Positions 35,723 through 49,835 of a stretch of 64,000 nt of DNA are shown here, in pieces. The stretch spans positions 640,001-704,000 of the forward strand of contig JBEPYO010000001.1 of the NCBI GenBank assembly GCA_041641295.1. The letters run 5' to 3'. Under the pieces are notes generated by a model, which saw only the letters and a list, made by a program, of their open reading frames with translations, was not told where the DNA came from and made no database searches. Position numbers and translations under genes: made by a program. Within the stretch, counting starts at the first letter, position 1, and each line of letters begins with the position of its first letter. Source of the DNA: Nitrososphaerota archaeon. Lineage in GTDB: Archaea > Thermoproteota > Nitrososphaeria_A > Caldarchaeales > Calditenuaceae.

Positions 35723-37669
35723 CTATCTACCGGATTTCTTAGGTGGCGCTCGCTTCCAGTAGTCTATGAGGGGGAGCCAGACGGTCATAACCGAGTCACC
35801 CCTATTCGCCCACGCATAGTAGGGGATAGCGTTCACCCTAGTCTTTCTCCTACCCAGCATAGGGGCTTCGACGCTCCTGTAGAGCCGCCCAGACCAGCCC
35901 GCAGAGTCTGCCACCCAAGCATCAAAGGAGAGCGTGGCTACCCCTCCGAGCAACTCTCTCCGAAACCTCTCCCGGAAGACTGTGCCCCTCTCCAACGCCA
36001 CCAGCCTCGGGTCTACCCTATTGTCAACACTCTCAAGGCAGTAGACAGTAGGGCCCCGCGCCAGCGCTACATGTCCTACATTATTCCGCACGTAGGGGTG
36101 TGAGGCAATCTTTCTAACCTTCATAGGGAAGCTGGCTTTGACTGTAGTCCTACCCCTCCACTTCCTCCTAAGCTCGAAGTATGTCGAAGGCCTCGGCCGG
36201 TAGACCCGGCCATCCACATTTACACGCGGCTCATCACACCAGCCCGGAACCCTGAGGAGGAGTGAGAAGGTTGCAGGCTCTTCACACTCGACCGTCATCT
36301 TAACCTCACCCCGCCAAGGATAGTCGGTCTCCTGCCTAAACACCACCCCAACGCCATCCAGATTCACGGTGGCTTTGCTCGAGCCATAGAGGTGTACCCA
36401 TAAACCCCTCTCAGAGGTTGAGTAGAAGTAGCCTGGAAGAGAGGTAAGCAGCCTCGCGATGTTTGGAGGGCAGCAAGCACATGGGAACCAAGGCGACCTA
36501 GAGTATCCTCCGCTCGAGGCCAAGGGGTTCATGTAGAAGTACCTTGTTCCGTCCAAGGATATGCCGGATAGGATAGAGTTGTAGAGAGCTAGCTCCATTA
36601 TGTCCGCAAACCTAGCCTCGCCCATCGCGAGAAGCATCCGCCAGTTCCACATGAAGCTCGCTATGGAGGCGCATGTCTCGGCATAGGCCCTCTCATTCGG
36701 GAGTTCATAATCATCGCCGAATGCCTCTGAGACATATCTGGACCCAGCCGCCCCCGTGATGTACATCTTTCTCTCTACGAAGTTGCGCCAGAGCCGCTCC
36801 ATCGCATCTAAGAGACTCCTCTCGCCCGTCTCCATGTAGAGGTCAGTGACTCCACAGTTTAGGTAGAGTGCCCTAACGGCGTGGCCGACGATCTCGCTGA
36901 GTTCGCGGACGGGAGCGTGGTCGACAAAATATGACGCGCCACCAAATATCCTGTAGAGGGCGTTGCTTAACCGGTCCTCCGGCGGAGGCCTCAGACTGTC
37001 TCTACCCCTCTCGTTTATGAAGAACTCGGCCGTCTCGAGGTATCTTTTCTCGCCCGTCTCTCTGTAGAGCTCTATTAGCGCCATCTCAATCTCTGGGTGT
37101 CCGCACACACCCCTTATCCCATCAGGGTTGAAGGTCTCGGCTATCAGGTTGGCAAACTTGACTGCAGCCCAGAAGAGCTTCTCCTCACCGACAGACCTGT
37201 GAAGCGCTATTGCCCCCTGAATCAGGTGGCCTGCACAGTAAAGCTCATGGTCAAATGTCAGGTTCTGCCAGCGACGCTCAGGCGCGCCGTGGTGCTCGGT
37301 GAAGAGGTAGCCATCCTCCTCCTGTGCGGCTACGATGTCGTCTATAACACTCTCTACAACCCCTTTTAGCTCGTCCTCCTTTCTTTTGGCGAGGTAGTAG
37401 CCGCACGCCTCCAACCACTTGTAAACGTCCGAGTCATCGAAGACGAAGAGTGAGCGTAGAGGCCTCTCAGAAGTCCTTCCAGCCGCCCACCTAAACCTCT
37501 TAAGCCTGTCACTCTCCTCCAGCATCCTATACTGGTGCCAGATCGCTTCTCTGGCAGTCTCTCCCACCCATCTCCCCCAGAACCCACCAACAATATCGAC
37601 ATTGTCTATAGGTACAGGCCTTAAACAGGCGTGAGGGCTCCTCGAAACATTAACCACGTTGACTGGCAT
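35723..37669 (-). CDS. glycoside hydrolase family 127 (beta-L-arabinofuranosidase-like)
   Basis: DSDVYKWLEA, HELYCAGH, GHPEIE, GHAVRA, YAETCA, CACCPPN, IPYYAWANRG. Confidence 0.93.
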   Translation of the reverse strand: MPVNVVNVSRSPHACLRPVPIDNVDIVGGFWGRWVGETAREAIWHQYRMLEESDRLKRFRWAAGRTSERPLRSLFVFDDSDVYKWLEACGYYLAKRKEDELKGVVESVIDDIVAAQEEDGYLFTEHHGAPERRWQNLTFDHELYCAGHLIQGAIALHRSVGEEKLFWAAVKFANLIAETFNPDGIRGVCGHPEIEMALIELYRETGEKRYLETAEFFINERGRDSLRPPPEDRLSNALYRIFGGASYFVDHAPVRELSEIVGHAVRALYLNCGVTDLYMETGERSLLDAMERLWRNFVERKMYITGAAGSRYVSEAFGDDYELPNERAYAETCASIASFMWNWRMLLAMGEARFADIMELALYNSILSGISLDGTRYFYMNPLASSGGYSRSPWFPCACCPPNIARLLTSLPGYFYSTSERGLWVHLYGSSKATVNLDGVGVVFRQETDYPWRGEVKMTVECEEPATFSLLLRVPGWCDEPRVNVDGRVYRPRPSTYFELRRKWRGRTTVKASFPMKVRKIASHPYVRNNVGHVALARGPTVYCLESVDNRVDPRLVALERGTVFRERFRRELLGGVATLSFDAWVADSAGWSGRLYRSVEAPMLGRRKTRVNAIPYYAWANRGDSVMTVWLPLIDYWKRAPPKKSGR

Positions 37670-37757: not shown

Positions 37758-39147
<1,390 letters not shown>

Positions 39148-39266: not shown

Positions 39267-40205
39267 ATGGAGAAAAAGAAGGTAATTGCTCTAACTATCG
39301 CAGCAGCTGTAATATTCGTCGCGGCTGCTCTTCTAAGCCTTCAAACCCTCACACCGAGACCTGGAATTACAAAGATAATACTGGCTATACAGCCGACACA
39401 AAACCCCCTAGACATAGCCGAGTCGTCCAAGAATCTTAAGGAGTTTCTCGAGAAGAGGCTGGGACTCCGGGTAGAAGTGTATATACCGACCGACTATGCA
39501 GGCGTCATAGAGGGGCTTAGGTTCAAAAATGTCCACGTCGCCCTTATGGGGTCCTGGCCCGCATACCTAGCAGTCAAGAATGCGGGCGCCGAGCTCCTAC
39601 TCGCAGAGGTTAGGACTGTCGCGGTGGGGGATCAAAAAGTCAACGCGACCTACTATTACTCGTACTGGATTGTTCTAAAGGATAGCCCATACAAGTCGAT
39701 CGAGGAGCTAAAAGGGAAGCGCGCCTGCTTCCCCAGCCCCATATCCTCTTCAGGCTTCCTAGCCCCTATGGCGCGGCTGGTTGAGCTTGGCCTTCTCAAG
39801 CGTGGAAGCGGAGAGCCTGTAAACCCGCGCGAATTCTTCGGCGAAGTCATCTTCGGTGGAGGGTATGGCCAGTGTTGGGAGGCACTTCGCGCGGGGCAGG
39901 TTGACGTAACAGTAATGGCGGGCGACGTGTCATACGAGCTCTACACCAAGGCCATGGGCTCGTCAAGAGTTCTAGAGACTCAAGGCCCCCTGCCTTCACA
40001 TGGTGTAGTAGTCTCATCGGACCTGCCCGACAGCCTCAAACAGAGGATAAAGGAGGCGTTCCTAGAGCTTTCAAAGCCCGAGTACAGGGATTTGATGAAA
40101 CGGCTAGTCTCGGCCCTGTTTGTAGGATTTGAGCCTAAGACCACCAGCGACCACCTCGGCACTCTTGAGAAATACATTGAGGAGACGGGGTTACAGTATA
40201 CTTGA
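39267..40205 (+). CDS. phnD: phosphate/phosphite/phosphonate ABC substrate-binding protein
   Basis: DYAGVIEGLR, YYYSYWIV, SPISSSGFLAP, GGYGQ; in operon with phnC and phnE homologues. Confidence 0.85.
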   Translation: MEKKKVIALTIAAAVIFVAAALLSLQTLTPRPGITKIILAIQPTQNPLDIAESSKNLKEFLEKRLGLRVEVYIPTDYAGVIEGLRFKNVHVALMGSWPAYLAVKNAGAELLLAEVRTVAVGDQKVNATYYYSYWIVLKDSPYKSIEELKGKRACFPSPISSSGFLAPMARLVELGLLKRGSGEPVNPREFFGEVIFGGGYGQCWEALRAGQVDVTVMAGDVSYELYTKAMGSSRVLETQGPLPSHGVVVSSDLPDSLKQRIKEAFLELSKPEYRDLMKRLVSALFVGFEPKTTSDHLGTLEKYIEETGLQYT

Positions 40206-40936
40206 GTAGCATCTTAGAAGCGAAGAATGTATGGTTCACGTACGATTCTAGAAACTATACACTCAAGGATATTTCGCTATCCATCGAGGCTGGTAAAATA
40301 TACATGGTGTTTGGTAGAAGCGGTGCAGGTAAGTCAACACTCCTAAAGATACTGAAAGGAATACTCAAACCATCACGCGGTGAAGTACTCTTTATGGGGC
40401 GGCCCACAACTTCAATCGATACAGCCAAGAGAGCATATAGCGTCATAGGATATATTCCCCAGGGATTCGGCATAGTCTCCAACATCTCCGTGCTTGACAA
40501 CGTCTTAGTAGGTGCTCTCGCCAGGGTTCCTCTACTCCACTCCATCTTAGGGCAATTCCCCAAGGAAGAGAGAGATAGGGCTGAGGAGATATTGGAAATG
40601 ATGGGGCTCGCCCAGTTTAAGTACCAGAAAGTCTCCCAGCTGAGCGGGGGTCAGAGGCAGCGAGTAGCTATTGCGAGAGCTTTGATGCAGAAGCCCCAGG
40701 TCATACTGGCTGACGAGTTTGTGAGCCAGCTTGACCCACTGACTGCCCTAGAGGTGCTAGACGTTTTCCGCGAACTCGCTGACAAGAGGGGAATAGCCAC
40801 AGTCATAACAAGCCACGACATCCACCTCGCCTCAAGGTATGCGGACAAAGTATTGGTCCTGAGGGATGGTCAATTTAAGCTCTGTAAGGATGGGCGAAGC
40901 GTCTCCGAGTCAGACTTAATCGCAGCCATGAGGTGA
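40202..40936 (+). CDS. phnC: phosphonate-type ABC ATP-binding protein
   Basis: GRSGAGKST, VLDNVLVGAL, LSGGQRQRVAIARALMQ, LADEFVSQLD. Confidence 0.87.
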   Translation: MSSILEAKNVWFTYDSRNYTLKDISLSIEAGKIYMVFGRSGAGKSTLLKILKGILKPSRGEVLFMGRPTTSIDTAKRAYSVIGYIPQGFGIVSNISVLDNVLVGALARVPLLHSILGQFPKEERDRAEEILEMMGLAQFKYQKVSQLSGGQRQRVAIARALMQKPQVILADEFVSQLDPLTALEVLDVFRELADKRGIATVITSHDIHLASRYADKVLVLRDGQFKLCKDGRSVSESDLIAAMR

Positions 40937-41694
40937 GGCTCTTCTTGAAAATCAAATATAGCGGGCGAATAATCATACTAGTGCTATTCTTTTTCTCGCT
41001 GTGGCAGACAGGATTTTTCGACCCAGACCGCGTCGCGAGGATACAGAATATTGGGCCATTCTTAGCTGGAATGCTTCCACCAGACCTCACGATTATCCCA
41101 CAAGTCCTCTCCGCAGTTTACGAGACAGTCGTCATGGCTTTCGCTGGAACACTAATGGGTGGCGCGCTTGCCCTGGCCCTAGCAATATTCAGTACGAGGC
41201 TTCTATTTCCCCCGCCTATCATGGCTCTTTTCCGGACAATACTCGCCCTGATAAGGACTATACCAGCGATACTATGGGCCTTGATATTCGTAGTCATAGC
41301 TGGCTTCGGCCCTTTCGCTGGAGTGCTAGCCATAACATTCTACACTACGGGCTATCTTGGAAAACTCTTCTACGAAGCCTTCGACTCTGTGAGTAGTGAA
41401 GTCTTGGAGGCGGTTAGGGGGGTTGGAGCCTCGAGACTCCAGCAGCTAAGATTCGCAATCCTCCCGGAGTCAGCGAACTACATCCTTAGCCAGCTACTCT
41501 TCATCTTCGAATACAATGTCAGAGCCTCCACTATCGTCGGCCTAGTAGGTGCAGGAGGGGTAGGATACCTGATACTAGCCCTAGTCCAGTCGCTGAGATA
41601 CAGCGGCCTCCTAACAACCATACTGATACTGCTAGCATTTGTACTCGCGATAGATTTTATCAGCTCGAAGGTTAGGTCGAGATACTTCACCTGA
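40933..41694 (+). CDS. phnE: phosphonate-type ABC permease
   Basis: RTIPAILWALIFV, GYLGKLFYE, FEYNVRASTIVGLVGAGGVG. Confidence 0.9.
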   Translation: MRLFLKIKYSGRIIILVLFFFSLWQTGFFDPDRVARIQNIGPFLAGMLPPDLTIIPQVLSAVYETVVMAFAGTLMGGALALALAIFSTRLLFPPPIMALFRTILALIRTIPAILWALIFVVIAGFGPFAGVLAITFYTTGYLGKLFYEAFDSVSSEVLEAVRGVGASRLQQLRFAILPESANYILSQLLFIFEYNVRASTIVGLVGAGGVGYLILALVQSLRYSGLLTTILILLAFVLAIDFISSKVRSRYFT

Positions 41695-41976: not shown

Positions 41977-42867
41977 TTAAAGCGTCTTGGCGTGGCAGTC
42001 TATCCTAATTTTGGGCAGTTGTGTGAGGCTTGTCTTCCTTGCGTAGCTGATTTCTGAGAGGGCCCAGAACCTATCATTCACATCGCAAAGCCAAACCTGA
42101 GACAGCCCTATTGTTTTCCTCCTAACCGCAAGACCCTTTGGATGGATGGGGTAGGCTACGGCTTGGTGAGCACCCTCTTCACGGGCGGCGAGCGGCTCAC
42201 GGCCTATAAACACCTTATATTTTTCGAGTAGCTTTGAGTGGAATTTCTTGAGCCACTGTGTCATCTCGAGTCCGAGGGCGGCTGCGGGCCCCGCCCTTTC
42301 TATCACCACCACATTATTCTCATCTTCTAGGACCAGGGAGAACATGCCTGTAGTAGAGTTTATGGCGCTTATCCAGAGCGTGGAGGGGGCGAGTATTTGG
42401 AACTCGTAGAGACTTAGGAGCATCATGCCATCGCTCCGGTGGCATTTAAGACTTCTGAAGATGGCTGCCCAGTCTTCACTTTCCTGCTGGAGGTTCAGCT
42501 TGAAAAATTTCAACACCCCCGAGCACGCCCACGCATAGGCTATAAAACGACCTGCCTCTACGCGGCCAGTAATCTTCAGAGCCCTGTGCCCAAATATCTC
42601 GCCCTCGTATTTTTCGACATCTGCCCACTTCTCAGCCTGTCTACTCTTGATGAGCCTCTCAACCCACTGGGCGAGCCCTACGGCATCGTAGTTCTTAGAC
42701 CTGTCAACTATAATCTCCACTCTAGGATAACCTTTGTCAGAGAATACTGAGTAGGAGCTGTGCGGCCCTATCCTCTCCGCGGCTAGCCTTAATGTCTCGG
42801 GTGCGAGAAACTCTATGCCACGCCAACCGATGAGTGTCTGATTAGCTATATCCGATGTGTTAGACAA
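41977..42867 (-). CDS. hypothetical protein made of two tandem repeats, each with H, WxC and CH motifs
   Basis: Halves align by eye: FLAP/ILAP, GHRA/AHQA, WAC/WLC, LKCH/IDCH. Overlaps the upstream gene by 8 nt. Confidence 0.75.
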   Translation of the reverse strand: MSNTSDIANQTLIGWRGIEFLAPETLRLAAERIGPHSSYSVFSDKGYPRVEIIVDRSKNYDAVGLAQWVERLIKSRQAEKWADVEKYEGEIFGHRALKITGRVEAGRFIAYAWACSGVLKFFKLNLQQESEDWAAIFRSLKCHRSDGMMLLSLYEFQILAPSTLWISAINSTTGMFSLVLEDENNVVVIERAGPAAALGLEMTQWLKKFHSKLLEKYKVFIGREPLAAREEGAHQAVAYPIHPKGLAVRRKTIGLSQVWLCDVNDRFWALSEISYARKTSLTQLPKIRIDCHAKTL

Positions 42868-43879
42868 GACCCATCAATGTCATTAGCGAGAAGGCTGCGG
42901 CCCACGCAGCGCCAGCCCTAAACCTCCCCAACCCATACACCACGTTAAGTGCATATGCCCCTAGGCCCGAAATCCAGAGCCAAGCAACCGGGGAGAGCGC
43001 CCTTCTAATATAGGTCAAGGCGAGCTCATCGCTTGACATCTCTGACAGCCCCATTATCGTCGCATCAATATATCTGTACGTCTCAACCTCGGCGGAACTC
43101 CAGTTCAAATATAGCGGAGTAACTTGAGAAATGTTGAAGGGGACAGCTATTCTGTCCACACCATTAACTACTGCCTCACTGAGCATCAGCCCTTCAATGG
43201 TTATCCTTTGACGACCTCCCTCCAAGGCCCTCCTTTTTTCAGCATCGCTCAAACCTGTGAGGTTTACCCTTAACCCCGAGGAGTCTAAGACCTCCGCCTT
43301 CAGAGTCAAGGCACGCGCCAGAGGAGCATAAATAGCTGAGCCGTTGGACAATATGTCCTCTCTAACACCCGCCGGGACTTCGACACCCTCATAGATCCCA
43401 GTGACTGAAAGGTCGCGAAAACCAACACCATTTGCCTCATATCCATAAACGATGATGGTGGATGGTGGGAGAAGGAGGCTAATTAGTGAGCCGACGGCAA
43501 TGAAGATGAAGAGTATCAGGAATCCGTTCAGTATGGATGAAAGGATAGATAACAGGTTTCCATTCTTCTTTTTGAGGAAGAACGAGAAGACCCACAGTAC
43601 TCCGAACAACACTCCTATGGCTAGGAAGAAGTAGGCAATCTGCCGAGCAATGACAAACCTTATGTCTACGGTGGGTGTCGGAATCTTCTCATCAAAAACA
43701 TTGATTATCTCGAGCCTAGGCAAGGACACTAACGTATCTAAGGTGATGCTGGATGCCACTACGAGGAAGAAGATGAGCATTGCTACTCCAGTACCTGGTC
43801 TCTCAGAGATCTCTGAAATCACCTTTCCCGGGCTGTGTATTATCCTGATGGGGCGTGTGAGCAGGGATGTGAAAGACAT
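42860..43879 (-). CDS. Yip1-like membrane protein with large extramembrane insertion
   Basis: N-terminal IIHSPGKVISEISERP followed by 3 TM helices, an approximately 150-aa insert, and 2 more TM helices. Confidence 0.65.
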   Translation of the reverse strand: MSFTSLLTRPIRIIHSPGKVISEISERPGTGVAMLIFFLVVASSITLDTLVSLPRLEIINVFDEKIPTPTVDIRFVIARQIAYFFLAIGVLFGVLWVFSFFLKKKNGNLLSILSSILNGFLILFIFIAVGSLISLLLPPSTIIVYGYEANGVGFRDLSVTGIYEGVEVPAGVREDILSNGSAIYAPLARALTLKAEVLDSSGLRVNLTGLSDAEKRRALEGGRQRITIEGLMLSEAVVNGVDRIAVPFNISQVTPLYLNWSSAEVETYRYIDATIMGLSEMSSDELALTYIRRALSPVAWLWISGLGAYALNVVYGLGRFRAGAAWAAAFSLMTLMGLV

Positions 43880-43892
43880 GGCAGCGTTACAC

Positions 43893-46800
43893 TTAATCTA
43901 TCTGCTCCTTGATAAGTCCTTTCGAGAACTCTAAGTACCTGTTCCTCTCCTCGACGGTTATTGCCCTCCAGATTAGGACCTGCTTTCTGAGGTCGTCTGC
44001 AAAGAAGTATGCCTGGGTAGCCCACATCGCGTCTGCTCCGCTGATCTTTGTCATGATTAGCTCGAACGAGTATCTCTTGGCAGACTCCTCGTAGATGGAG
44101 GCTATCTCTACGTGCTGGTTTATGCCCTGTTCGTAGGGGGCCAGCGAGACATCCAGCCGCAGCCTCATTTCGCCCCTATTGTTTAATACTGGTGGCATGA
44201 CCTCTCTCACGGTGTAGCTGGGCTTCTGCGCACCAGCTCCGACATAATACTCGTATAGGAAGGCCATGAATGCCGCTGCCTCGTCCCTGTTGTCGATGCT
44301 TAGTGGGAGTGGGAGGCGCCATACCCCCTGCTTGGGCTTTGTGGGTGGCTTCCACTTCCTCTCGAGGGAGGGTGTGACCAGCATGGCGGCAATTCTTGAT
44401 GGGTATACTGAGGCAAGCATGGCGGCTAATATCACGATGCCGAGGGAGAGCATTATGAAGATGGAGGCATAGTTGAGAGTGTAGACTCTTGGCAGGAGCC
44501 CGAATTCTATGAAGGCCCTGTTCAACACGAATCCATTTAGATACCCGATGAGAGCGCCTAGCGAGGCGTAGACGGCAGATTCTACGAAGAAGAGGAAGCT
44601 GGAGCCTAGAGGCGGCAAGCCTAACACAGAGTAGACCGATATCTCCCGCCTCCTCTCCTCCACACTGCCCATGAGGTTAATTACCGTATTTAGTGCGCCG
44701 ATGACAATCAGCGCCGGCACAATCTCCCACCCAACGGTCTTAAAGCTCGTGACACGGGAGCCCCTATATGTCGAGCCGCCCTCACCCACGTATACCGCGA
44801 GGTCTGTAACCATGCTCAAGTCTCTGGCGAGCTGGCGCATACTCTCGCCGGCCCCACCTTCCGCGGGATAAATGTTGTAGGACGCCGTGTATCCGCCGAG
44901 GCTGGTAACTAGTCCGTATGGAGCGATAATCAGCCTGTCCCACGAGAGGGGAGGCGGAATCTGCTGTGCGGGCACAGTTGCGCCAAAGGCTATGGATCCT
45001 ACATAGTATGGATTTATAGGCGCCATTGAGAAGCCGCTGATCTCGAACAGTTTTTCAGCTTCGGCAGCAGAGTATATGCCTACTACTTTTAAGGGGAGGC
45101 CCATGGCATAGAGCCTGTCACCGACCTGAACTCCAAGCATCTCTGCCAACGTATCAGGGACAAGTATCTCGTAGGCGTATTCACTACTGAAGATGCTGCT
45201 GGGGCCCTTTGATTGAATTATGCAGCAGGCTCCTAGTTGTACGACTGAGCTATTCTCATTCCCTACTAGCTGCGCAACTGTTCGCTCAAGGTCAGGTCCT
45301 GTGAGGCCTAGTATTGCATGGATGTTGTAGAAATTTCCTGAGAGCGGGTCCTTGCTGAGCTGGAGTATTGGGCCCACCGCAGGGTAGATTGAGACTGGGT
45401 AGTACCATGCCCTAGGTGCCACCACCATGCCCTGCGCCTCGTAAGCCTTCAGCACCTCACGCCCCTCATCACCCATGACGCCTCCAACTGGGATACCATA
45501 GCCAATCCTCACCGAGACCCCATCTGTTGGTGCACTCTGTGGTAGCGACGGGAATGCAACATCAACCGAGGGAGCGACTGAGGTGAAGATTGAGAGTCCG
45601 AGTGTCACACCTATGATTGAGCCGATTATCAGCGTAGTCCTCAACCTCCTTCTCCTCATGTTTTCTACGGCTGTGTTATATGCGACAGCCATTATCCCCA
45701 CGCGGCCAATCTCAAGAACGTGAGACCCAAGCATCCTGTAGGATATGCTACGCCTTACGCGCTCAACTTCGTTACCCAAGACCGAGAGAACAATCATGTA
45801 CAGCACTATTGTGAGGAGGCCGAAGACTGCCATTAGAGCTGTGCTCATAACACTGAATGCGGGGTGAACCTCGGTGAAGATTAGGAAGAGGACAGCGCCC
45901 ACAGATATTATCGATAGAAGCCTCTTCTTCCCTTCAGCATGTATGACCAGACGCTCTACGAAGACGCTGCTCAAGACTATTAAGCCTATAAAGAATAGGC
46001 TTGTGTTTGAGGAGTCGTTTATAAGACCCATAACCTCGTTGTACGCCCTGTATGCCCAGCCCCACGCAAGCATTGAGTAGGACTGGAAGAGGGAGTACTT
46101 TCTATTGGAGTAGGCCTCCTCGGCCAGACGTAGATACTTCTCAACCTGCTCCAGCTTCTGCTCGATGCTAATGGTCTTAACATTCTTGGAGCTCAGCGCA
46201 TCATACCTGCCCTTGGTTATTCTGTACATATCGAGCGCAATTCTGTAGGCTGTGTTGTGAACCACCAGCTCGTGTTCAGACTTGAAGCCTACACCCTCCG
46301 TCTCCCTCTCAGTCGAGTTTACGAGGGCTATGTATGGCACACGGGAGAGGGCTACTCCAGCCCCACCAAGCCTGCCAAGAACCATGAAGACTTCGCCGGG
46401 CTGAGTGAAGACTACACCCACAGGCTCATACATGTTAAAGTAAACTCCATAGAAGAGCAGATCGCCTCTGATTCGGAAGTTGAGGGGGACTATCTGGGCG
46501 CCGGCTGTATGATACCACCCACCTCCGAGCCCAGCTTGCCCGCCTGTCGTCGGCGCTGCCCACCCCGCCAGGTGCGGGTCAGGCATTAGTGCCGGCCTGA
46601 AGTTGGTGAGGTCTATGACGTCGAAGATGTAGGTTGGCACAGCCCTGAAGACGACTACTGAGACCTCGTCATAGGGTGAGAGGGGAGAAATTGTCGGCGG
46701 AATTGACCTAGCACCATAGATGCCGAGGTCGGGGGCGTATATTATCTCCCCAGTCTCATCATCGAATCCCCATGCCTCGACGAAATATCTGCTGCCCGGG

Positions 46801-48638
46801 ACGAATGGATAAGGCACAAGACCCTTAATAGTGAACATTCCATTCTCATCGGCGAAGGTCATCATCTTGTTGAAGGGATATGGTAGTGGCCAGTAGCCTG
46901 CGCTGAGGCCGCCTCCCACCGCCGTCCCACCTCCAGGTCCATAGACAACTGAGGCGGTGGGTGTGAAGCCTACATAGACCCTGACTAGGAGCTTGGGAAC
47001 CGGCCTATACCATCCAACCGATGCGTTATAGGTGATAACCTTCCCCCTAAGCTCGATGAAGCCTGCATATTCTGCAAAGCCTCCGGGCTGTATGAATAGG
47101 CGAGAGGGTGAGACGCTCTGCCAGCTAATTCCAAGGCTTTTCTCATTCAGGAATGAGTCGATGATGTGGGCTATTGTGTAGAGCTGGGGACGGAGGCGCT
47201 CCAAATCCACTAGAGAGAGGTCGCTAACAGGAGTTCCTATCCAAGACAGTGATGTCTGGGAGGATTGTATTGTGAAGGCTATGCCCCTCGTCTGCTCTGC
47301 AGGCTCTGTATCAAGCATGCTTGGATACTGCTGAGAACCCCAGTACATCGTGTTGGTGAAGAACTCCTTTACAAAAGAGTCGGATTTTATACCAGTCATC
47401 TTTTGAAGATTCGAGACAAAGTCTTCATCATGAATATAGCTGGTGAATATCTGTCTCCTTATCCAAGAGTATCTCACAGTTATTCCTCCAGCGTTGCCTG
47501 TCGTCGCGTAAAGGTTAAGCGCGCTCCCTCTCAGCAGGTCAAGCCCTATTCCATAGGGGTCTAGTTCTCCGATTCCTATCATGAGGATCGGTCTGAACCT
47601 GCCCTCCGCAACCTCCCGGGAGAAGTAGAAATTATCCACGAAGTTCCTCGGACCGGCTAGCCCCTGCCAATGCCCGCTAAAGAAGACGAACCAGGCATTC
47701 CAGTACGGCTTATTCTCTGAATAGTATCTTGCAAGCTCTAGGAGGAATGCTGGGGGAACTGCCTCCATTGCTGCCGGGGAGAGTGCGGGGACGGCTGACC
47801 AGCTATCAAACCGCGCGGTGAAGATCATGGTTGTCGGATCGGCACTATTCGTGCCGTTTAGCGCGCCGATCACATTATAGGCCGTGGTCTCGATGTATCT
47901 CATTCTAACGAAGACAGTTACCCTCGCACCTTTTTCAGCAGCTTCTTTCAGTCTTTCTCCTGTTTCACTTGTGACGTAGAGTCGGGGAAAGTTAAGTGGG
48001 GCGTCGATGAACTTTTTTAGAGAGTCTAGGTAGTGTGGGACTGCTGGTGGCTCGATAAAGATTACAGCGCGTGCTCCAAGCTTCGCAGCGTTTAGCCAGT
48101 TGGAGCCGCTAGTATAATCCATGAGAACAATGCTTCCGACAACATCTTTCCCGTCAAAATCCTCCAGCTCTCCACGCCCCACATATATTAAGTGTCCACG
48201 TACCCCCTCTTTCCTTGTCATGGAGGTGTGGGGCCCGTTTGGCCAGACGGCATATGCTTCAAGCCTCGTCCTCTCTCCTCTTGATTCAAGCTCGATGTAT
48301 GAGCCCTCGTCGATCGGTACTACAACACTGTAATTCTGAATAATCACTTTGAGGCCCATCTCCCTAAGCCTGTCAGCGATATATTGTGCGGCCTTGTAGT
48401 GTCCGGGATAACCCGTCACGCGGCTTCCAAGGCTACTTAGATACTCTATATGCTGGGCCATTAGGGAAGTGTTTATGTCGTTAGGCGAGACTTTCTTTAG
48501 AGGTGTTTCCTGGGCCTCTGCTATTGGGACGTGGGTAAGAGAGAATGTTGACACAAGTAGCAATAGGGTTAGAGCTATTGTGATGCTGTGTCTGAGGTGC
48601 CTCGGACGAGTGCAGGAAAGCATTTCTTTCGGGTACAT
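43893..48638 (-). CDS. giant FtsX/MacB-family permease with N-terminal M28-like/PA ectodomain
   Basis: Signal peptide; LSSLGSRVTGYPGHYKAAQYI; PA domain (IYVGRGELEDFDGKDVVGSIVL, AAKLGARAVIF); ARFDS; extra TM bundle; NMRRRRLRTTL; LAEMLGVQVGDRL; SVEERRREISVYSVLG. Confidence 0.85.
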   Translation of the reverse strand: MYPKEMLSCTRPRHLRHSITIALTLLLLVSTFSLTHVPIAEAQETPLKKVSPNDINTSLMAQHIEYLSSLGSRVTGYPGHYKAAQYIADRLREMGLKVIIQNYSVVVPIDEGSYIELESRGERTRLEAYAVWPNGPHTSMTRKEGVRGHLIYVGRGELEDFDGKDVVGSIVLMDYTSGSNWLNAAKLGARAVIFIEPPAVPHYLDSLKKFIDAPLNFPRLYVTSETGERLKEAAEKGARVTVFVRMRYIETTAYNVIGALNGTNSADPTTMIFTARFDSWSAVPALSPAAMEAVPPAFLLELARYYSENKPYWNAWFVFFSGHWQGLAGPRNFVDNFYFSREVAEGRFRPILMIGIGELDPYGIGLDLLRGSALNLYATTGNAGGITVRYSWIRRQIFTSYIHDEDFVSNLQKMTGIKSDSFVKEFFTNTMYWGSQQYPSMLDTEPAEQTRGIAFTIQSSQTSLSWIGTPVSDLSLVDLERLRPQLYTIAHIIDSFLNEKSLGISWQSVSPSRLFIQPGGFAEYAGFIELRGKVITYNASVGWYRPVPKLLVRVYVGFTPTASVVYGPGGGTAVGGGLSAGYWPLPYPFNKMMTFADENGMFTIKGLVPYPFVPGSRYFVEAWGFDDETGEIIYAPDLGIYGARSIPPTISPLSPYDEVSVVVFRAVPTYIFDVIDLTNFRPALMPDPHLAGWAAPTTGGQAGLGGGWYHTAGAQIVPLNFRIRGDLLFYGVYFNMYEPVGVVFTQPGEVFMVLGRLGGAGVALSRVPYIALVNSTERETEGVGFKSEHELVVHNTAYRIALDMYRITKGRYDALSSKNVKTISIEQKLEQVEKYLRLAEEAYSNRKYSLFQSYSMLAWGWAYRAYNEVMGLINDSSNTSLFFIGLIVLSSVFVERLVIHAEGKKRLLSIISVGAVLFLIFTEVHPAFSVMSTALMAVFGLLTIVLYMIVLSVLGNEVERVRRSISYRMLGSHVLEIGRVGIMAVAYNTAVENMRRRRLRTTLIIGSIIGVTLGLSIFTSVAPSVDVAFPSLPQSAPTDGVSVRIGYGIPVGGVMGDEGREVLKAYEAQGMVVAPRAWYYPVSIYPAVGPILQLSKDPLSGNFYNIHAILGLTGPDLERTVAQLVGNENSSVVQLGACCIIQSKGPSSIFSSEYAYEILVPDTLAEMLGVQVGDRLYAMGLPLKVVGIYSAAEAEKLFEISGFSMAPINPYYVGSIAFGATVPAQQIPPPLSWDRLIIAPYGLVTSLGGYTASYNIYPAEGGAGESMRQLARDLSMVTDLAVYVGEGGSTYRGSRVTSFKTVGWEIVPALIVIGALNTVINLMGSVEERRREISVYSVLGLPPLGSSFLFFVESAVYASLGALIGYLNGFVLNRAFIEFGLLPRVYTLNYASIFIMLSLGIVILAAMLASVYPSRIAAMLVTPSLERKWKPPTKPKQGVWRLPLPLSIDNRDEAAAFMAFLYEYYVGAGAQKPSYTVREVMPPVLNNRGEMRLRLDVSLAPYEQGINQHVEIASIYEESAKRYSFELIMTKISGADAMWATQAYFFADDLRKQVLIWRAITVEERNRYLEFSKGLIKEQID

Positions 48639-48758: not shown

Positions 48759-49835
48759 GTGAGGGAGTTGGGGGAAATTAAGGTCGGGATTATAGGTTGT
48801 GGGGGTATTGCGCAAAATGCTCACATTCCGGGCTATCAGCGTCTCGCGAATGTGAAGGTCGTGGCTTGCTGTGATGTTGTGGAGTCTGTCGCAAGGACGG
48901 TTGCTGAGAAGTTCAGTATTCCGCGTTACTTTACTGACTATGAAAAGATGCTTAAGAGTGTGGAGTTGGATGCCGTCAGTGTCTGCACACCTAACGCCCT
49001 CCATAAGGAGCCGACAATAATGGCACTTGAGCGCGGCGTACATGTCCTAGTAGAGAAGCCCATTGCCACGAGTGCAGAGGATGGGGCCGCGATGGTTCGT
49101 GCCGCTAGGAAGGCTGGTAGGATACTGATTGTTGGCTTTCAGGAGCGCTTCAACCCTTACGGGATGGTGGTTAAGAAATTTGTGGAGCGTGGGGACTTGG
49201 GGTGGGTTTACTATAACAGGGCAGTTTATCTGAGGAGGAGGGGAGTGCCGACTTGGGGAGCCTTCCTGAACAGGGAGCTGCAGGGAGGTGGAGCCCTGAT
49301 AGATATCGGCGTCCACGCCCTTGACCTAGCGATGTATCTTCAGGGGTTCAAAAAGCCTGTTAGCGTGCTGGGCAGAGCCTACACCCTCTTCGGAAAGGAC
49401 AGGGAGGCTGCTGAAGCAAATATTTGGGGCGCATGGGATACTGAGAAGTTTGAGGTAGACGATAACGCATTCGCTGTAGTGACCATGGAGGATGGCTCAT
49501 TCCTAGTACTTGAGACTTCTTGGGCCAGCCACATCAAGTCGCAGGGCCTCTTCAACGTCTATCTCCGAGGGACGAGGGGTGGTGCACAGCTTGACCCTCC
49601 AGAAATATATATGGATAGGAATGGAGTTGCCTTTGATATGACACCTGTTATTAACACTAAGCCGGATTGGAGGGAGCAGTCCTACATTAAGATAAAGAAA
49701 TTTATCGAGTCGATTGAGGTTGGGAAGCCTCTCTACGCGCCGGGCGAGGAGGGAGTGGTTGTGCAGAGCGTCATCGACGCCATCTATAGGTCGACTGAGA
49801 CGGGCAAGGTCGAGCCAGTACACATACCCCTATAG
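48759..49835 (+). CDS. Gfo/Idh/MocA-family NAD(P) oxidoreductase
   Basis: GIIGCGGIA, CTPNALH, VEKP, GGGALIDIGVHALD. Confidence 0.93.
   Translation: MRELGEIKVGIIGCGGIAQNAHIPGYQRLANVKVVACCDVVESVARTVAEKFSIPRYFTDYEKMLKSVELDAVSVCTPNALHKEPTIMALERGVHVLVEKPIATSAEDGAAMVRAARKAGRILIVGFQERFNPYGMVVKKFVERGDLGWVYYNRAVYLRRRGVPTWGAFLNRELQGGGALIDIGVHALDLAMYLQGFKKPVSVLGRAYTLFGKDREAAEANIWGAWDTEKFEVDDNAFAVVTMEDGSFLVLETSWASHIKSQGLFNVYLRGTRGGAQLDPPEIYMDRNGVAFDMTPVINTKPDWREQSYIKIKKFIESIEVGKPLYAPGEEGVVVQSVIDAIYRSTETGKVEPVHIPL

Follow-up and report, generated by a model that had tools for sequence, protein, structure and literature searches.

A three-gene archaeal operon built around a giant MacB/FtsX-type permease with a degenerate M28 head, and its candidate partners elsewhere in the genome

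Do three tightly packed archaeal genes encode a complete envelope machine, or are they the local cluster of a system whose other parts lie elsewhere in the genome? The question is raised by a locus at positions 41977-48638 of a stretch of 64,000 nucleotides (hereafter the window) from a Nitrososphaerota archaeon of the family Calditenuaceae (GenBank assembly GCA_041641295.1, contig JBEPYO010000001.1, positions 640,001 to 704,000). The locus encodes a giant membrane protein, a second, probably Yip1-like membrane protein and a soluble protein. An earlier note on this DNA had proposed a surface machine in which an M28-peptidase-like domain, fused to an FtsX-type permease, captures or remodels peptides or glycoproteins. 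We conclude that the giant is a member of a family of giant type VII ATP-binding cassette (ABC) permeases of the MacB/FtsX type. With modest confidence, we favor reading the trio as a locally clustered part of a multi-locus, Thermoproteota-wide type VII ABC system that works by the mechanism set out below, and not as an autonomous machine.

The operon and the architecture of the giant

All three genes lie on the minus strand: gene 1, the giant (43893-48638, 1581 amino acids (aa), ATG start), gene 2, the divergent Yip1-like candidate (42860-43879, 339 aa, ATG start), and gene 3, a cytoplasmic protein of what we call the P3 family (41977-42867, 296 aa, TTG start). The TAA stop codon of gene 1 is separated by 13 nt from the ATG of gene 2, and gene 3 overlaps gene 2 by 8 nt, its TTG lying within the final codons of the latter; the start column of gene 3 is the same in its close homologues, two of which begin with Met. 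The coordinates of the open reading frames (ORFs) and their junctions thus agree with the co-orientation, gap and overlap described before. Genes on the opposite strand flank the trio on both sides, with a GFO/IDH/MocA gene on its upstream side and a phosphonate-type ABC importer on its downstream side, and the trio is therefore, by layout, a self-contained transcription unit. The three genes form one operon-like unit of a Caldarchaeales-type archaeon, in line with the operon that had been thought probable.

The giant begins with a signal peptide or anchor (residues 1-42, 48513-48638; hydrophobic core 19-37, then AEA/QE) which, judging from its sequence, would be cleaved. There follow an M28 aminopeptidase-like domain that is catalytically degenerate (residues ~44-508, 47115-48509) and carries a protease-associated (PA) insert (157-230, 47949-48170), a beta-rich region made of strands in the model (~514-793, 46260-47099), three long helices toward the membrane (~796-874, 46014-46253; helices 759-779, 786-807 and 811-837 of the model) and an extra bundle of three transmembrane (TM) segments (881-953, 45780-45998), with hydropathy peaks at 881-899, 907-925 and 935-953 and helices in the model. 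The MacB/FtsX-type module (~977-1424, 44367-45710), recognized by Pfam, profile, Foldseek and VIA comparisons alike, runs in the order pre-TM1 helix, TM1, extracytoplasmic domain, TM2, coupling-helix motif ERRREI, TM3 and TM4. A conserved alpha+beta tail (1431-1581, 43896-44348), KA1/TBP-like by model and VIA, closes the protein; all of these features are on the minus strand. Hydropathy places a long region outside up to ~875, the TM segments of the FtsX-type module at 1003-1021, 1302-1324, 1349-1367 and 1393-1411, a second outside domain at 1022-1300 between TM1 and TM2, and the cytoplasmic tail at 1420-1581. A basic cytoplasmic stretch, NMRRRRLRTTL, precedes TM1.

For structural comparison the giant was modelled as two halves, 38-875 and 860-1581, from alignments of 37 sequences each. 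The N-terminal half reached a predicted local distance difference test score (pLDDT) of 87.8 and a predicted template modelling score of 0.88, and matched the aminopeptidase 2ek8 in Foldseek (1.4e-27) and in VIA (Z 27.6), the latter comparison taking in model residues 8-471. Aeromonas aminopeptidase 1rtq aligned with the head at Z 27.0 (root-mean-square deviation (rmsd) 2.7 over 267 residues), and transferrin receptor (Z 24.8), glutaminyl cyclases and GPAA1 were also among the VIA matches. The M28-like fold that had been proposed is therefore well founded. For the PA insert, the Pfam match (PF02225) has an E value of 8.6e-4 and, at 19.8 bits, stays below the 23.9 threshold, while the top Foldseek matches are PA-bearing M28 proteins (2ek8, PaAP, TfR, GCPII). 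A profile of 26 family members, searched against PDB, gave the same two halves: the PA-bearing M28 aminopeptidases 2ek8 (E 1.1e-24) and YwaD (1.2e-18) for the head and MacB 5lil (5.6e-15) for the MacB module, with further matches to MacB, YtrF, LolC/E/F, transferrin receptor, nicalin and GCPII.

The C-terminal half (pLDDT 81.4) resembles MacB 5gko most closely in Foldseek (4.9e-11), with LolC/E, HrtB, YbbP, YtrF and BceB also found; by VIA it aligns with YtrF at Z 15.3 and with FtsX 8tzj at Z 12.5 (rmsd 3.1 over 166 residues). Its outside domain aligns with the MacB periplasmic domain 3ftj (Z 12.0, rmsd 3.5 over 181 residues) and with YknZ 5f9q (Z 11.7), and Pfam FtsX (PF02687) matches residues 1310-1417 at E 2e-9, with 38 bits against a cut-off of 25.5. 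The TM2-TM4 region (1302-1411) contains SVEERRREISVYSVLG, which holds the coupling-helix motif between TM2 and TM3; E1328 is invariant and R1329 is kept in at least 90% of 26 sequences, and the motif forms helix 471-479 of the 860-1581 model. The tail (~1431-1563) aligns in VIA with the KA1 domains 5iri_B (Z 9.7, rmsd 2.6 over 99 residues, a score that barely exceeds the range reached by unrelated folds) and 1ul7 (Z 9.2), and with TBP/START-like alpha+beta folds. Seven of its residues (R1427, W1440, P1501, G1534, W1539, R1551 and W1557) are invariant in 37 sequences. As modelled, the tail is a KA1/TBP-like and not a nucleotide-binding domain, and gene 1 has no ATPase domain of its own. Hydropathy, Pfam, profile and models agree with the layout that the earlier note had outlined, from signal peptide through M28-like/PA domain, extra TM segments, MacB-type TM1 and FtsX TM segments to the tail. 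An end-to-end match to a characterized transporter was looked for in PDB and Pfam and none was found; their matches cover the M28/PA head and the MacB module only.

The state of the M28 site was compared in 40 giants, namely the window protein and 39 full-length proteins from 40 fetched loci (a truncated one, L066, was dropped), with the register taken from a HMMER alignment to 2ek8. Glutamate occurs in none of the 40 at the position of the general base, where 37 have His, nor at that of the ligand Glu, where 37 have Trp or Tyr. The last ligand His is likewise absent from all 40 and replaced by Gly in 24, whereas the first ligand His is kept in 24/40 and is Arg in 5/5 proteins of the window's genus. 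In the window protein the site reads R276, D278, E292, H323, W324, E358 and G468, that is, Arg at the first His, His323 at the general base, Trp at the ligand Glu and Gly at the last His. Pfam M28 (PF04389) does not match this protein at E values up to 1; a precomputed PF04389 call is found on most homologues of at most 47% identity. Some of the site is conserved, with the Asp of the HxD motif (D278) in 40/40, an acidic residue at or next to the bridging Asp (292) in 38/40 and His at 323 in 37/40. Given the kept Asp and acidic residue, a remnant of one metal site may survive across the family, less so in the window's genus. Since the Glu-Glu pair and the last zinc His are gone throughout and the first His is Arg in the genus, peptide remodelling by M28 chemistry, a part of the earlier proposal, is unlikely. 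By analogy with the inactive M28 heads among its matches, the head would be a binding domain rather than a peptidase.

Genes 2 and 3 and the neighbors of the giants

Gene 3 has no TM segment by hydropathy and is cytoplasmic. It contains one set of Cys and His residues per half, H94/C115/C142-H143 and H234/C261/C291-H292. The duplication is not seen when the halves are compared by BLASTP (E 3.2); comparison of half-profiles by hhalign gives a probability of 97.5% and an E value of 6.5e-12, and His94/His234, Trp-x-Cys115/261 and Cys-His 142-143/291-292 fall in register. An internally duplicated, soluble protein, as first described, is thus what we find. The Cys and His residues are invariant in 9/9 close homologues and invariant or nearly so in a 14-row family alignment, and the two His-Cys-Cys-His sets suggest two metal sites. 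Structural look-alikes of gene 3 in Atlas are unnamed archaeal and bacterial proteins of 290-330 aa (TM-score 0.70-0.75), followed at a wide distance by DcrB/PsbP clusters at no more than 0.41-0.43; one distant relative matches PsbP_2 at E 0.019, and one homologue is recorded from 'Candidatus Calditenuaceae archaeon HR02'. Separately, ORFs of ~165-210 aa that match the first repeat only (E 1e-7 to 1e-14) were noted in G096, G136, G212, G224, G350 and other genomes of family f12. Most of the genomes with these half-size relatives lack giants, and the relatives may stand for the form that the P3 family had before its duplication.

Gene 2 has three clear N-terminal TM segments (32-50, 84-102, 119-137) and a C-terminus (297-339) that is hydrophobic but below the TM threshold, where the Yip1 core has five TM segments; a loop of ~155 aa carries four N-X-S/T sequons. 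Pfam finds no Yip1 (PF04893) match on gene 2 itself. Its profile retrieves 6 clusters among 1.84 billion representatives, and four of its five distant relatives match PF04893 at E 3.6e-7 to 1.6e-4, two of the five above the 28.6-bit cut-off. An hhalign comparison with four Pfam-confirmed Yip1 proteins linked in operons is weak (probability 38%, E 3.4e-4 over 98 columns), and an Atlas feature score of 0.81 for Yip1 serves as a lead only. Gene 2 is therefore probably a divergent Yip1-like membrane protein, an assignment made through its relatives; the family named in the earlier note stands for four of the five relatives and finds no direct Pfam match in gene 2. Genes 2 and 3 have few close homologues (9 and 11 clusters, 53-92% identity), which belong to one narrow group. 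In the window's genome (G000), a 283-aa ORF on contig C1 (1000977-1001828, plus strand) matches the gene 2 profile weakly (E 4.4e-5) and may encode a second Yip1-like protein.

Giants of this kind are widespread. We found 148 homologues of ~1450-1600 aa; the profile matches 87/401 sampled genomes of the phylum and 41/161 genera at E <=1e-20, including 7/7 genomes of the window's genus versus 0/7 from other genera of its family. The protein matches include a Gemmatimonadota record, which extends the family to at least one bacterial phylum, as well as contigs 5.4-5.6 Mb long. Copy numbers can be high: in G174, a genome of 2.1 Mb, there are at least 8 FtsX-bearing ORFs in the range 1355-1524 aa and several more in the range 950-1140 aa, and G334 has 6 giant ORFs of 1482-1547 aa. 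We fetched 40 giant loci with ~7.5-kb flanks, 36 from other genera and 4 from the window's own. All 36 other-genus loci have DUF6785-like or OPT (oligopeptide transporter)-like permease genes within 7.5 kb of the giant. These permeases, one to four genes per locus, belong to a single cluster of polytopic proteins of 620-770 aa that either match DUF6785 plus DUF6784 or resemble OPT transporters, and both types are present in 28/36 loci. Such genes are absent within 7.5 kb in the 4/4 own-genus loci and in the window; the DUF6785/OPT-like pair of G000 is found ~690 kb away from the window (C1:1.381-1.386 Mb), next to an FtsX paralogue of 1072 aa. Of the partners that the earlier note had put up for survey, the OPT-like transporter is represented in every other-genus locus by a DUF6785- or OPT-like permease, while an ABC ATPase is not conserved there and PqqD is usually not adjacent.

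The order giant, 339 aa, 296 aa is kept in 4/4 own-genus loci with flanks, and in the other three genomes of the genus P3 and the giant share a contig, with P3 1.0-1.9 kb below. With phmmer, neither gene 2 nor gene 3 has a match in 16 giant loci from other genera (0/16). The trio is therefore not a self-contained three-gene system: its synteny is confined to the genus, and the permeases that adjoin giants elsewhere are ~690 kb away in G000. Profiles reach further than phmmer. A narrow P3 profile (A2) was found in 17/401 genomes, and the wider profile A7, built after it, has full-length matches in 66/401 at E <=1e-30. Using cut-offs of E <=1e-100 for a strong giant match (69 genomes), E <=1e-30 for P3 and E <=1e-10 for the PqqD-type protein, P3 and giants occur together in 64 of the 401 genomes, giants only in 5, P3 only in 2 and neither in 330; for the PqqD-type protein the corresponding numbers are 66, 3, 3 and 329, although related genomes are not independent and these tables hence overstate the statistical weight. 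Four of the five genomes with a giant and no P3 are only 70-82% complete, and both genomes with P3 only carry weaker giant matches. The pattern repeats within families for all three proteins (window's family 7/7 in one genus versus 0/7 in others; f7 2/16; f28 6/12).

Of 28 P3 loci, 15 have a PqqD-type gene (PF05402; its N-terminal part is conserved and IPVRNP-like) next to P3 or separated from it by one gene, and in 5/28 a Pfam-confirmed Yip1 gene then follows. The remaining P3 neighbors were dropped as partners because they are housekeeping genes (KaiC-like, NAD synthase, tRNA methyltransferase, ribosomal protein L6). In the single-contig genomes G046 and G198 of family f7, PqqD, P3, two genes, the giant and two permeases stand in one same-strand run; the full run reads GH57, glycogen-synthase-like glycosyltransferase, PqqD, P3, a 121-aa protein, a 608-aa surface protein, giant, two permeases and GH57. 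The P3 proteins of these genomes (283 and 282 aa) are still recognized by a profile that leaves them out (E 2e-26 and 8e-28). These data support the view that genes 2 and 3 belong with the giant, though not as an autonomous trio; the co-occurrence of P3 and PqqD with giants across the phylum is new here. Two side observations concern such loci. The 608-aa surface protein, directly upstream of the giant in G046 (L059 12034-13860, minus strand), has a signal sequence, a C-terminal TM segment and a weak YidC_periplas-like match. In G017 and G025 (L099 and L102), the genes after a P3, PqqD and Yip1 operon encode a 1053-aa protein, which matches UPF0182 weakly, and a major facilitator superfamily (MFS) transporter.

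A second locus and a candidate motor

The window's genome holds a second locus, fetched as two overlapping pieces (L058, C1:1369001-1388900, ~690 kb from the window; L131, C1:1385001-1396000). Its order is a PqqD-type gene, directly after it a 198-aa FtsX without outside domain, two unrelated genes, a 1072-aa FtsX/MacB_PCD paralogue, a PMT-like GT-C glycosyltransferase and then two permease-type proteins, one of 697 aa (DUF6785/DUF6784) and one of 635 aa (OPT-like). The PqqD gene is also found 3-4 kb from the short paralogue in three further genomes of the genus. Five other giant-bearing genomes have one small FtsX each (ORF 188-238 aa), directly followed by an ABC ATPase in 5/5. Altogether a small FtsX is present in 6/6 giant-bearing genomes versus 0/5 giant-less relatives, which have FtsX ORFs of 408-539 aa only. 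In G046 and G198 the pair of small FtsX and ATPase stands directly after the giant operon, convergent to it.

The ATPases linked to the small FtsX are 66-87% identical across families, and their closest PDB matches are MJ0796 (1e-75), the MacB nucleotide-binding domain and LolD. In G000, the ATPase at C1:1390413-1391165, ~5 kb beyond the second locus, shares 70-75% identity with them, whereas the next paralogue reaches 45-49%. An orthologue at 70-87% identity was found in 11/11 giant-bearing genomes, a count that includes G000 and the genome of the query as well as five giant-bearing genomes from five families with a copy at 79-85%; the best match in five giant-less relatives is 40-53% identical. 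The small FtsX and ATPase counts cover few genomes, 16 of the 401 for the ATPase. As to copy number, G006, G021, G103, G292 and G340 have a second ATPase copy at 63-69% identity beside the one at 79-85%, and two copies are adjacent in G046 (L105); G000 has one only.

None of the 48 ABC-like ORFs of G000 lies in the trio operon. The phosphonate-type ABC importer of the window (binding protein, ATPase and permease; 39267-41694, plus strand) was considered as a motor and rejected, since it is convergent with the operon and complete in itself. Other genes noted in the window are a GH127 beta-L-arabinofuranosidase-like gene (35723-37669, minus strand), triosephosphate isomerase (37788-38486, plus strand) and a primase large subunit, which identifies the organism as archaeal. 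Upstream of the giant and divergent from it is the GFO/IDH/MocA oxidoreductase (48759-49835, plus strand), and genes of the same BLAST cluster occur near giants in 11/40 loci, other genera included; this may be a weak link to sugar metabolism or chance.

Uptake, export or reception, and the known systems

In our preferred reading, which sees the trio as the clustered part of a multi-locus system, the separate parts would form one machine in which the ATPase drives the giants. The shared ATPase, acting on the small FtsX and/or on the membrane module of the giant, would move the head by mechanotransmission as in MacB, LolCDE and FtsEX. The dead-peptidase head would bind and not cut an extracellular oligomer, such as a peptide or glycan, and pass it to the OPT-fold permeases, which would import it. 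The Yip1-like protein may aid assembly of the membrane complex, as reported for YknW with YknXYZ, while P3 and PqqD may act at the cytoplasmic face in assembly or regulation. We lean to nutrient capture on account of the OPT-fold partners, the many paralogues and the varied catabolic neighbors; the system probably serves this end, and peptides or glycans would be what is captured. That the helpers share an operon with the giant here can, in our view, be understood from the window's genus having a single giant, so that single-copy helpers can be encoded with it.

Several observations weigh against this reading. No ATPase is conserved beside the giants: of the first 20 loci, 5 have ABC ORFs within 7.5 kb, in every case on the opposite strand, and Pfam finds ABC_tran in only 4 of 133 neighbors from 29 loci. 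What ties the giants to the ATPase is therefore their co-occurrence, examined in 16 genomes, together with proximity in a single genus. As a rule P3 and PqqD do not lie beside a giant, and their co-occurrence counts are inflated by shared ancestry. The neighbors of the giants are heterogeneous (sugar-linked, peptidase and housekeeping) and offer no clear pointer to a substrate; the tally for the same 133 neighbors gives GFO/IDH/MocA 5, radical SAM 4, and sugar-linked and peptidase families 2 each. The Yip1 assignment of gene 2 is transitive only, and the KA1-like match of the tail has the thin margin given above. No RNA sequencing run is listed as containing the stretch; three hot-spring DNA runs contain it and may be where it came from, and two freshwater runs share 0.08-0.10 of its words. 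The known type VII ABC systems export or extract, and we know of none that imports. The PqqD-type peptide-binding fold and the Yip1 partner suit an exporter at least as well as an importer.

A bolder version, possible but on the whole doubtful, is a new class of ATP-driven uptake machine with one shared motor and many interchangeable, substrate-specific giants that feed paired OPT-fold permeases around a P3/PqqD/Yip1 core. Here the LolD-type ATPase and the headless small FtsX would be the motor, the dead-peptidase heads of the giants would capture extracellular oligomers, and P3, the PqqD-type and the Yip1-like proteins would assemble or gate the complex. Such a system would be the first of type VII ABC in import and an archaeal counterpart of loci of the polysaccharide-utilization type.

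Export or extraction is a serious rival, being the rule for known type VII ABC systems and fitting the PqqD-type fold and a Yip1 partner as in YknWXYZ, although we consider it unlikely. FtsX modules and the shared ATPase would then expel a peptide or extract an anchored surface protein; the PqqD-type protein would recognize a ribosomal peptide in the cytoplasm, the Yip1-like protein would assemble the pump and the dead head would hold the product or a surface partner. Every characterized relative found by sequence or fold (MacB, LolC/E, HrtB, YtrF, BceB, FtsX) exports, extracts or activates; the PqqD fold (PF05402) shares loci with P3 and Yip1 and, in G000, with the small FtsX; and PMC4887032 gives a Yip1 precedent in a MacB-type peptide pump. 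Set against this, OPT-fold permeases adjoin the giants in 36/36 loci outside the genus, and the multiplication of giants (at least 8 in one genome) beside varied catabolic genes is a pattern of nutrient acquisition. No small-peptide gene was seen by the PqqD genes, though no search was aimed at one.

Less probable again is an ATP-independent surface receptor, scaffold or sensor, in which the FtsX-like module is an anchor or dimerization unit only, the head binds a ligand, the KA1-like tail relays a signal to cytoplasmic partners (P3 and PqqD, for example) or tethers them, and the ATPase serves the small FtsX alone. The lack of an ATPase conserved in cis and the conserved non-ATPase cytoplasmic domain after TM4 would fit such a role, as would the dead M28 heads of transferrin receptor, nicalin and GPAA1, all among the matches, which are receptors or substrate-recruiting subunits. 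However, the whole family keeps the coupling-helix motif between TM2 and TM3, with E1328 invariant and R1329 almost so; small FtsX and the ATPase orthologue occur in the giant-bearing genomes that were checked and not in giant-less relatives; and the small FtsX-ATPase operon abuts the giant operon in G046 and G198. Finally, it is very improbable that the three genes make up an autonomous envelope system in which the M28-like domain, as an active enzyme, trims or remodels peptides or S-layer glycoproteins: the junctions between the genes are tight, the M28/PA fold is genuine and part of a metal site is left (D278, acidic 292 and His 323, as counted above), but the Glu-Glu pair and last His ligand are missing from 40/40, the first His is Arg in the genus, Pfam M28 has no match on the window protein, the three-gene set is confined to one genus and the other conserved parts lie elsewhere in the genome.

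Whichever way the system works, the giant family is large and uncharacterized, with members in about a fifth of the sampled Thermoproteota genomes (87/401), and where it is expanded to at least 8 copies of a 4.5-kb gene, it fills an appreciable part of a small genome. The database names 'M28 family peptidase' and 'FtsX-like permease' probably lead to wrong estimates of how much extracellular protein sediment and hot-spring archaea degrade, since the catalytic residues are missing. The operon ties three orphan families (P3, PqqD-type and Yip1-like) and a candidate shared ATPase to the giants, which makes a concrete parts list. If the preferred multi-locus reading is true, mechanotransmission of the MacB/Lol/FtsEX kind extends to nutrient capture, and prokaryotic Yip1 and OPT-fold proteins gain a testable role.

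In the literature searched, which is not the whole literature, no paper was found on the giant family or on DUF6785/DUF6784, nor any joining FtsX, 'oligopeptide transporter' and M28, or PqqD with Yip1. Papers on MacB mechanotransmission in archaea include none on the giant family, as far as their titles and the beginnings of their abstracts tell. The earlier statement that no archaeal system of such architecture has been characterized accords with this, and the partner set and multi-locus organization of the giants had not been described before; in kind, the system is type VII ABC.

Within that class (MacB, LolCDE, FtsEX, YtrEF, HrtBA, YbbAP, BceAB), the giants share the four-TM FtsX module with a large outside domain between TM1 and TM2, the ER.REI coupling-helix motif, the fold (YtrF Z 15.3, MacB 4.9e-11) and a LolD/MJ0796-type ATPase in the genome. 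MacB exports peptide toxins and YknWXYZ the SDP peptide, LolCDE extracts lipoproteins, and FtsEX works by mechanotransmission. The giants differ from these systems in ~940 extra N-terminal residues (dead M28/PA head, beta-rich region, helical stalk and three more TM segments), in the KA1/TBP-like tail, in having no ATPase gene in the locus, in constant OPT-fold neighbors outside the window's genus, and in many paralogues per genome versus apparently one ATPase (two copies in some) and one small FtsX. OPT (PF03169) and DUF6785/DUF6784 proteins match the other-genus neighbors of the giants and the pair at the second locus of G000, while none is in the window operon; we know of no OPT protein that works with an FtsX-type partner.

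The head has its closest known parallels in inactive M28 ectodomains such as transferrin receptor 1, nicalin and GPAA1 of the GPI transamidase, which have also lost zinc ligands and have a binding or recruiting role; nicastrin is another catalytically inactive ectodomain of the M28 fold. Those proteins are eukaryotic and either single-pass or part of unrelated complexes, whereas the head of the giant is fused to an ABC-type permease, and the replacement of Glu-Glu by Gly-His-Trp is specific to the giant family. For gene 2 the nearest precedent is YknWXYZ of Bacillus, where a Yip1-family protein, YknW, is encoded with an FtsX/MacB-type permease and is reported to modulate assembly of the MacB-type YknXYZ (PMC4887032). 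The archaeal locus differs in having neither a membrane-fusion protein nor an adjacent ATPase, and gene 2 differs from YknW in its extracytoplasmic insert of ~155 aa and in matching Pfam Yip1 through its relatives only.

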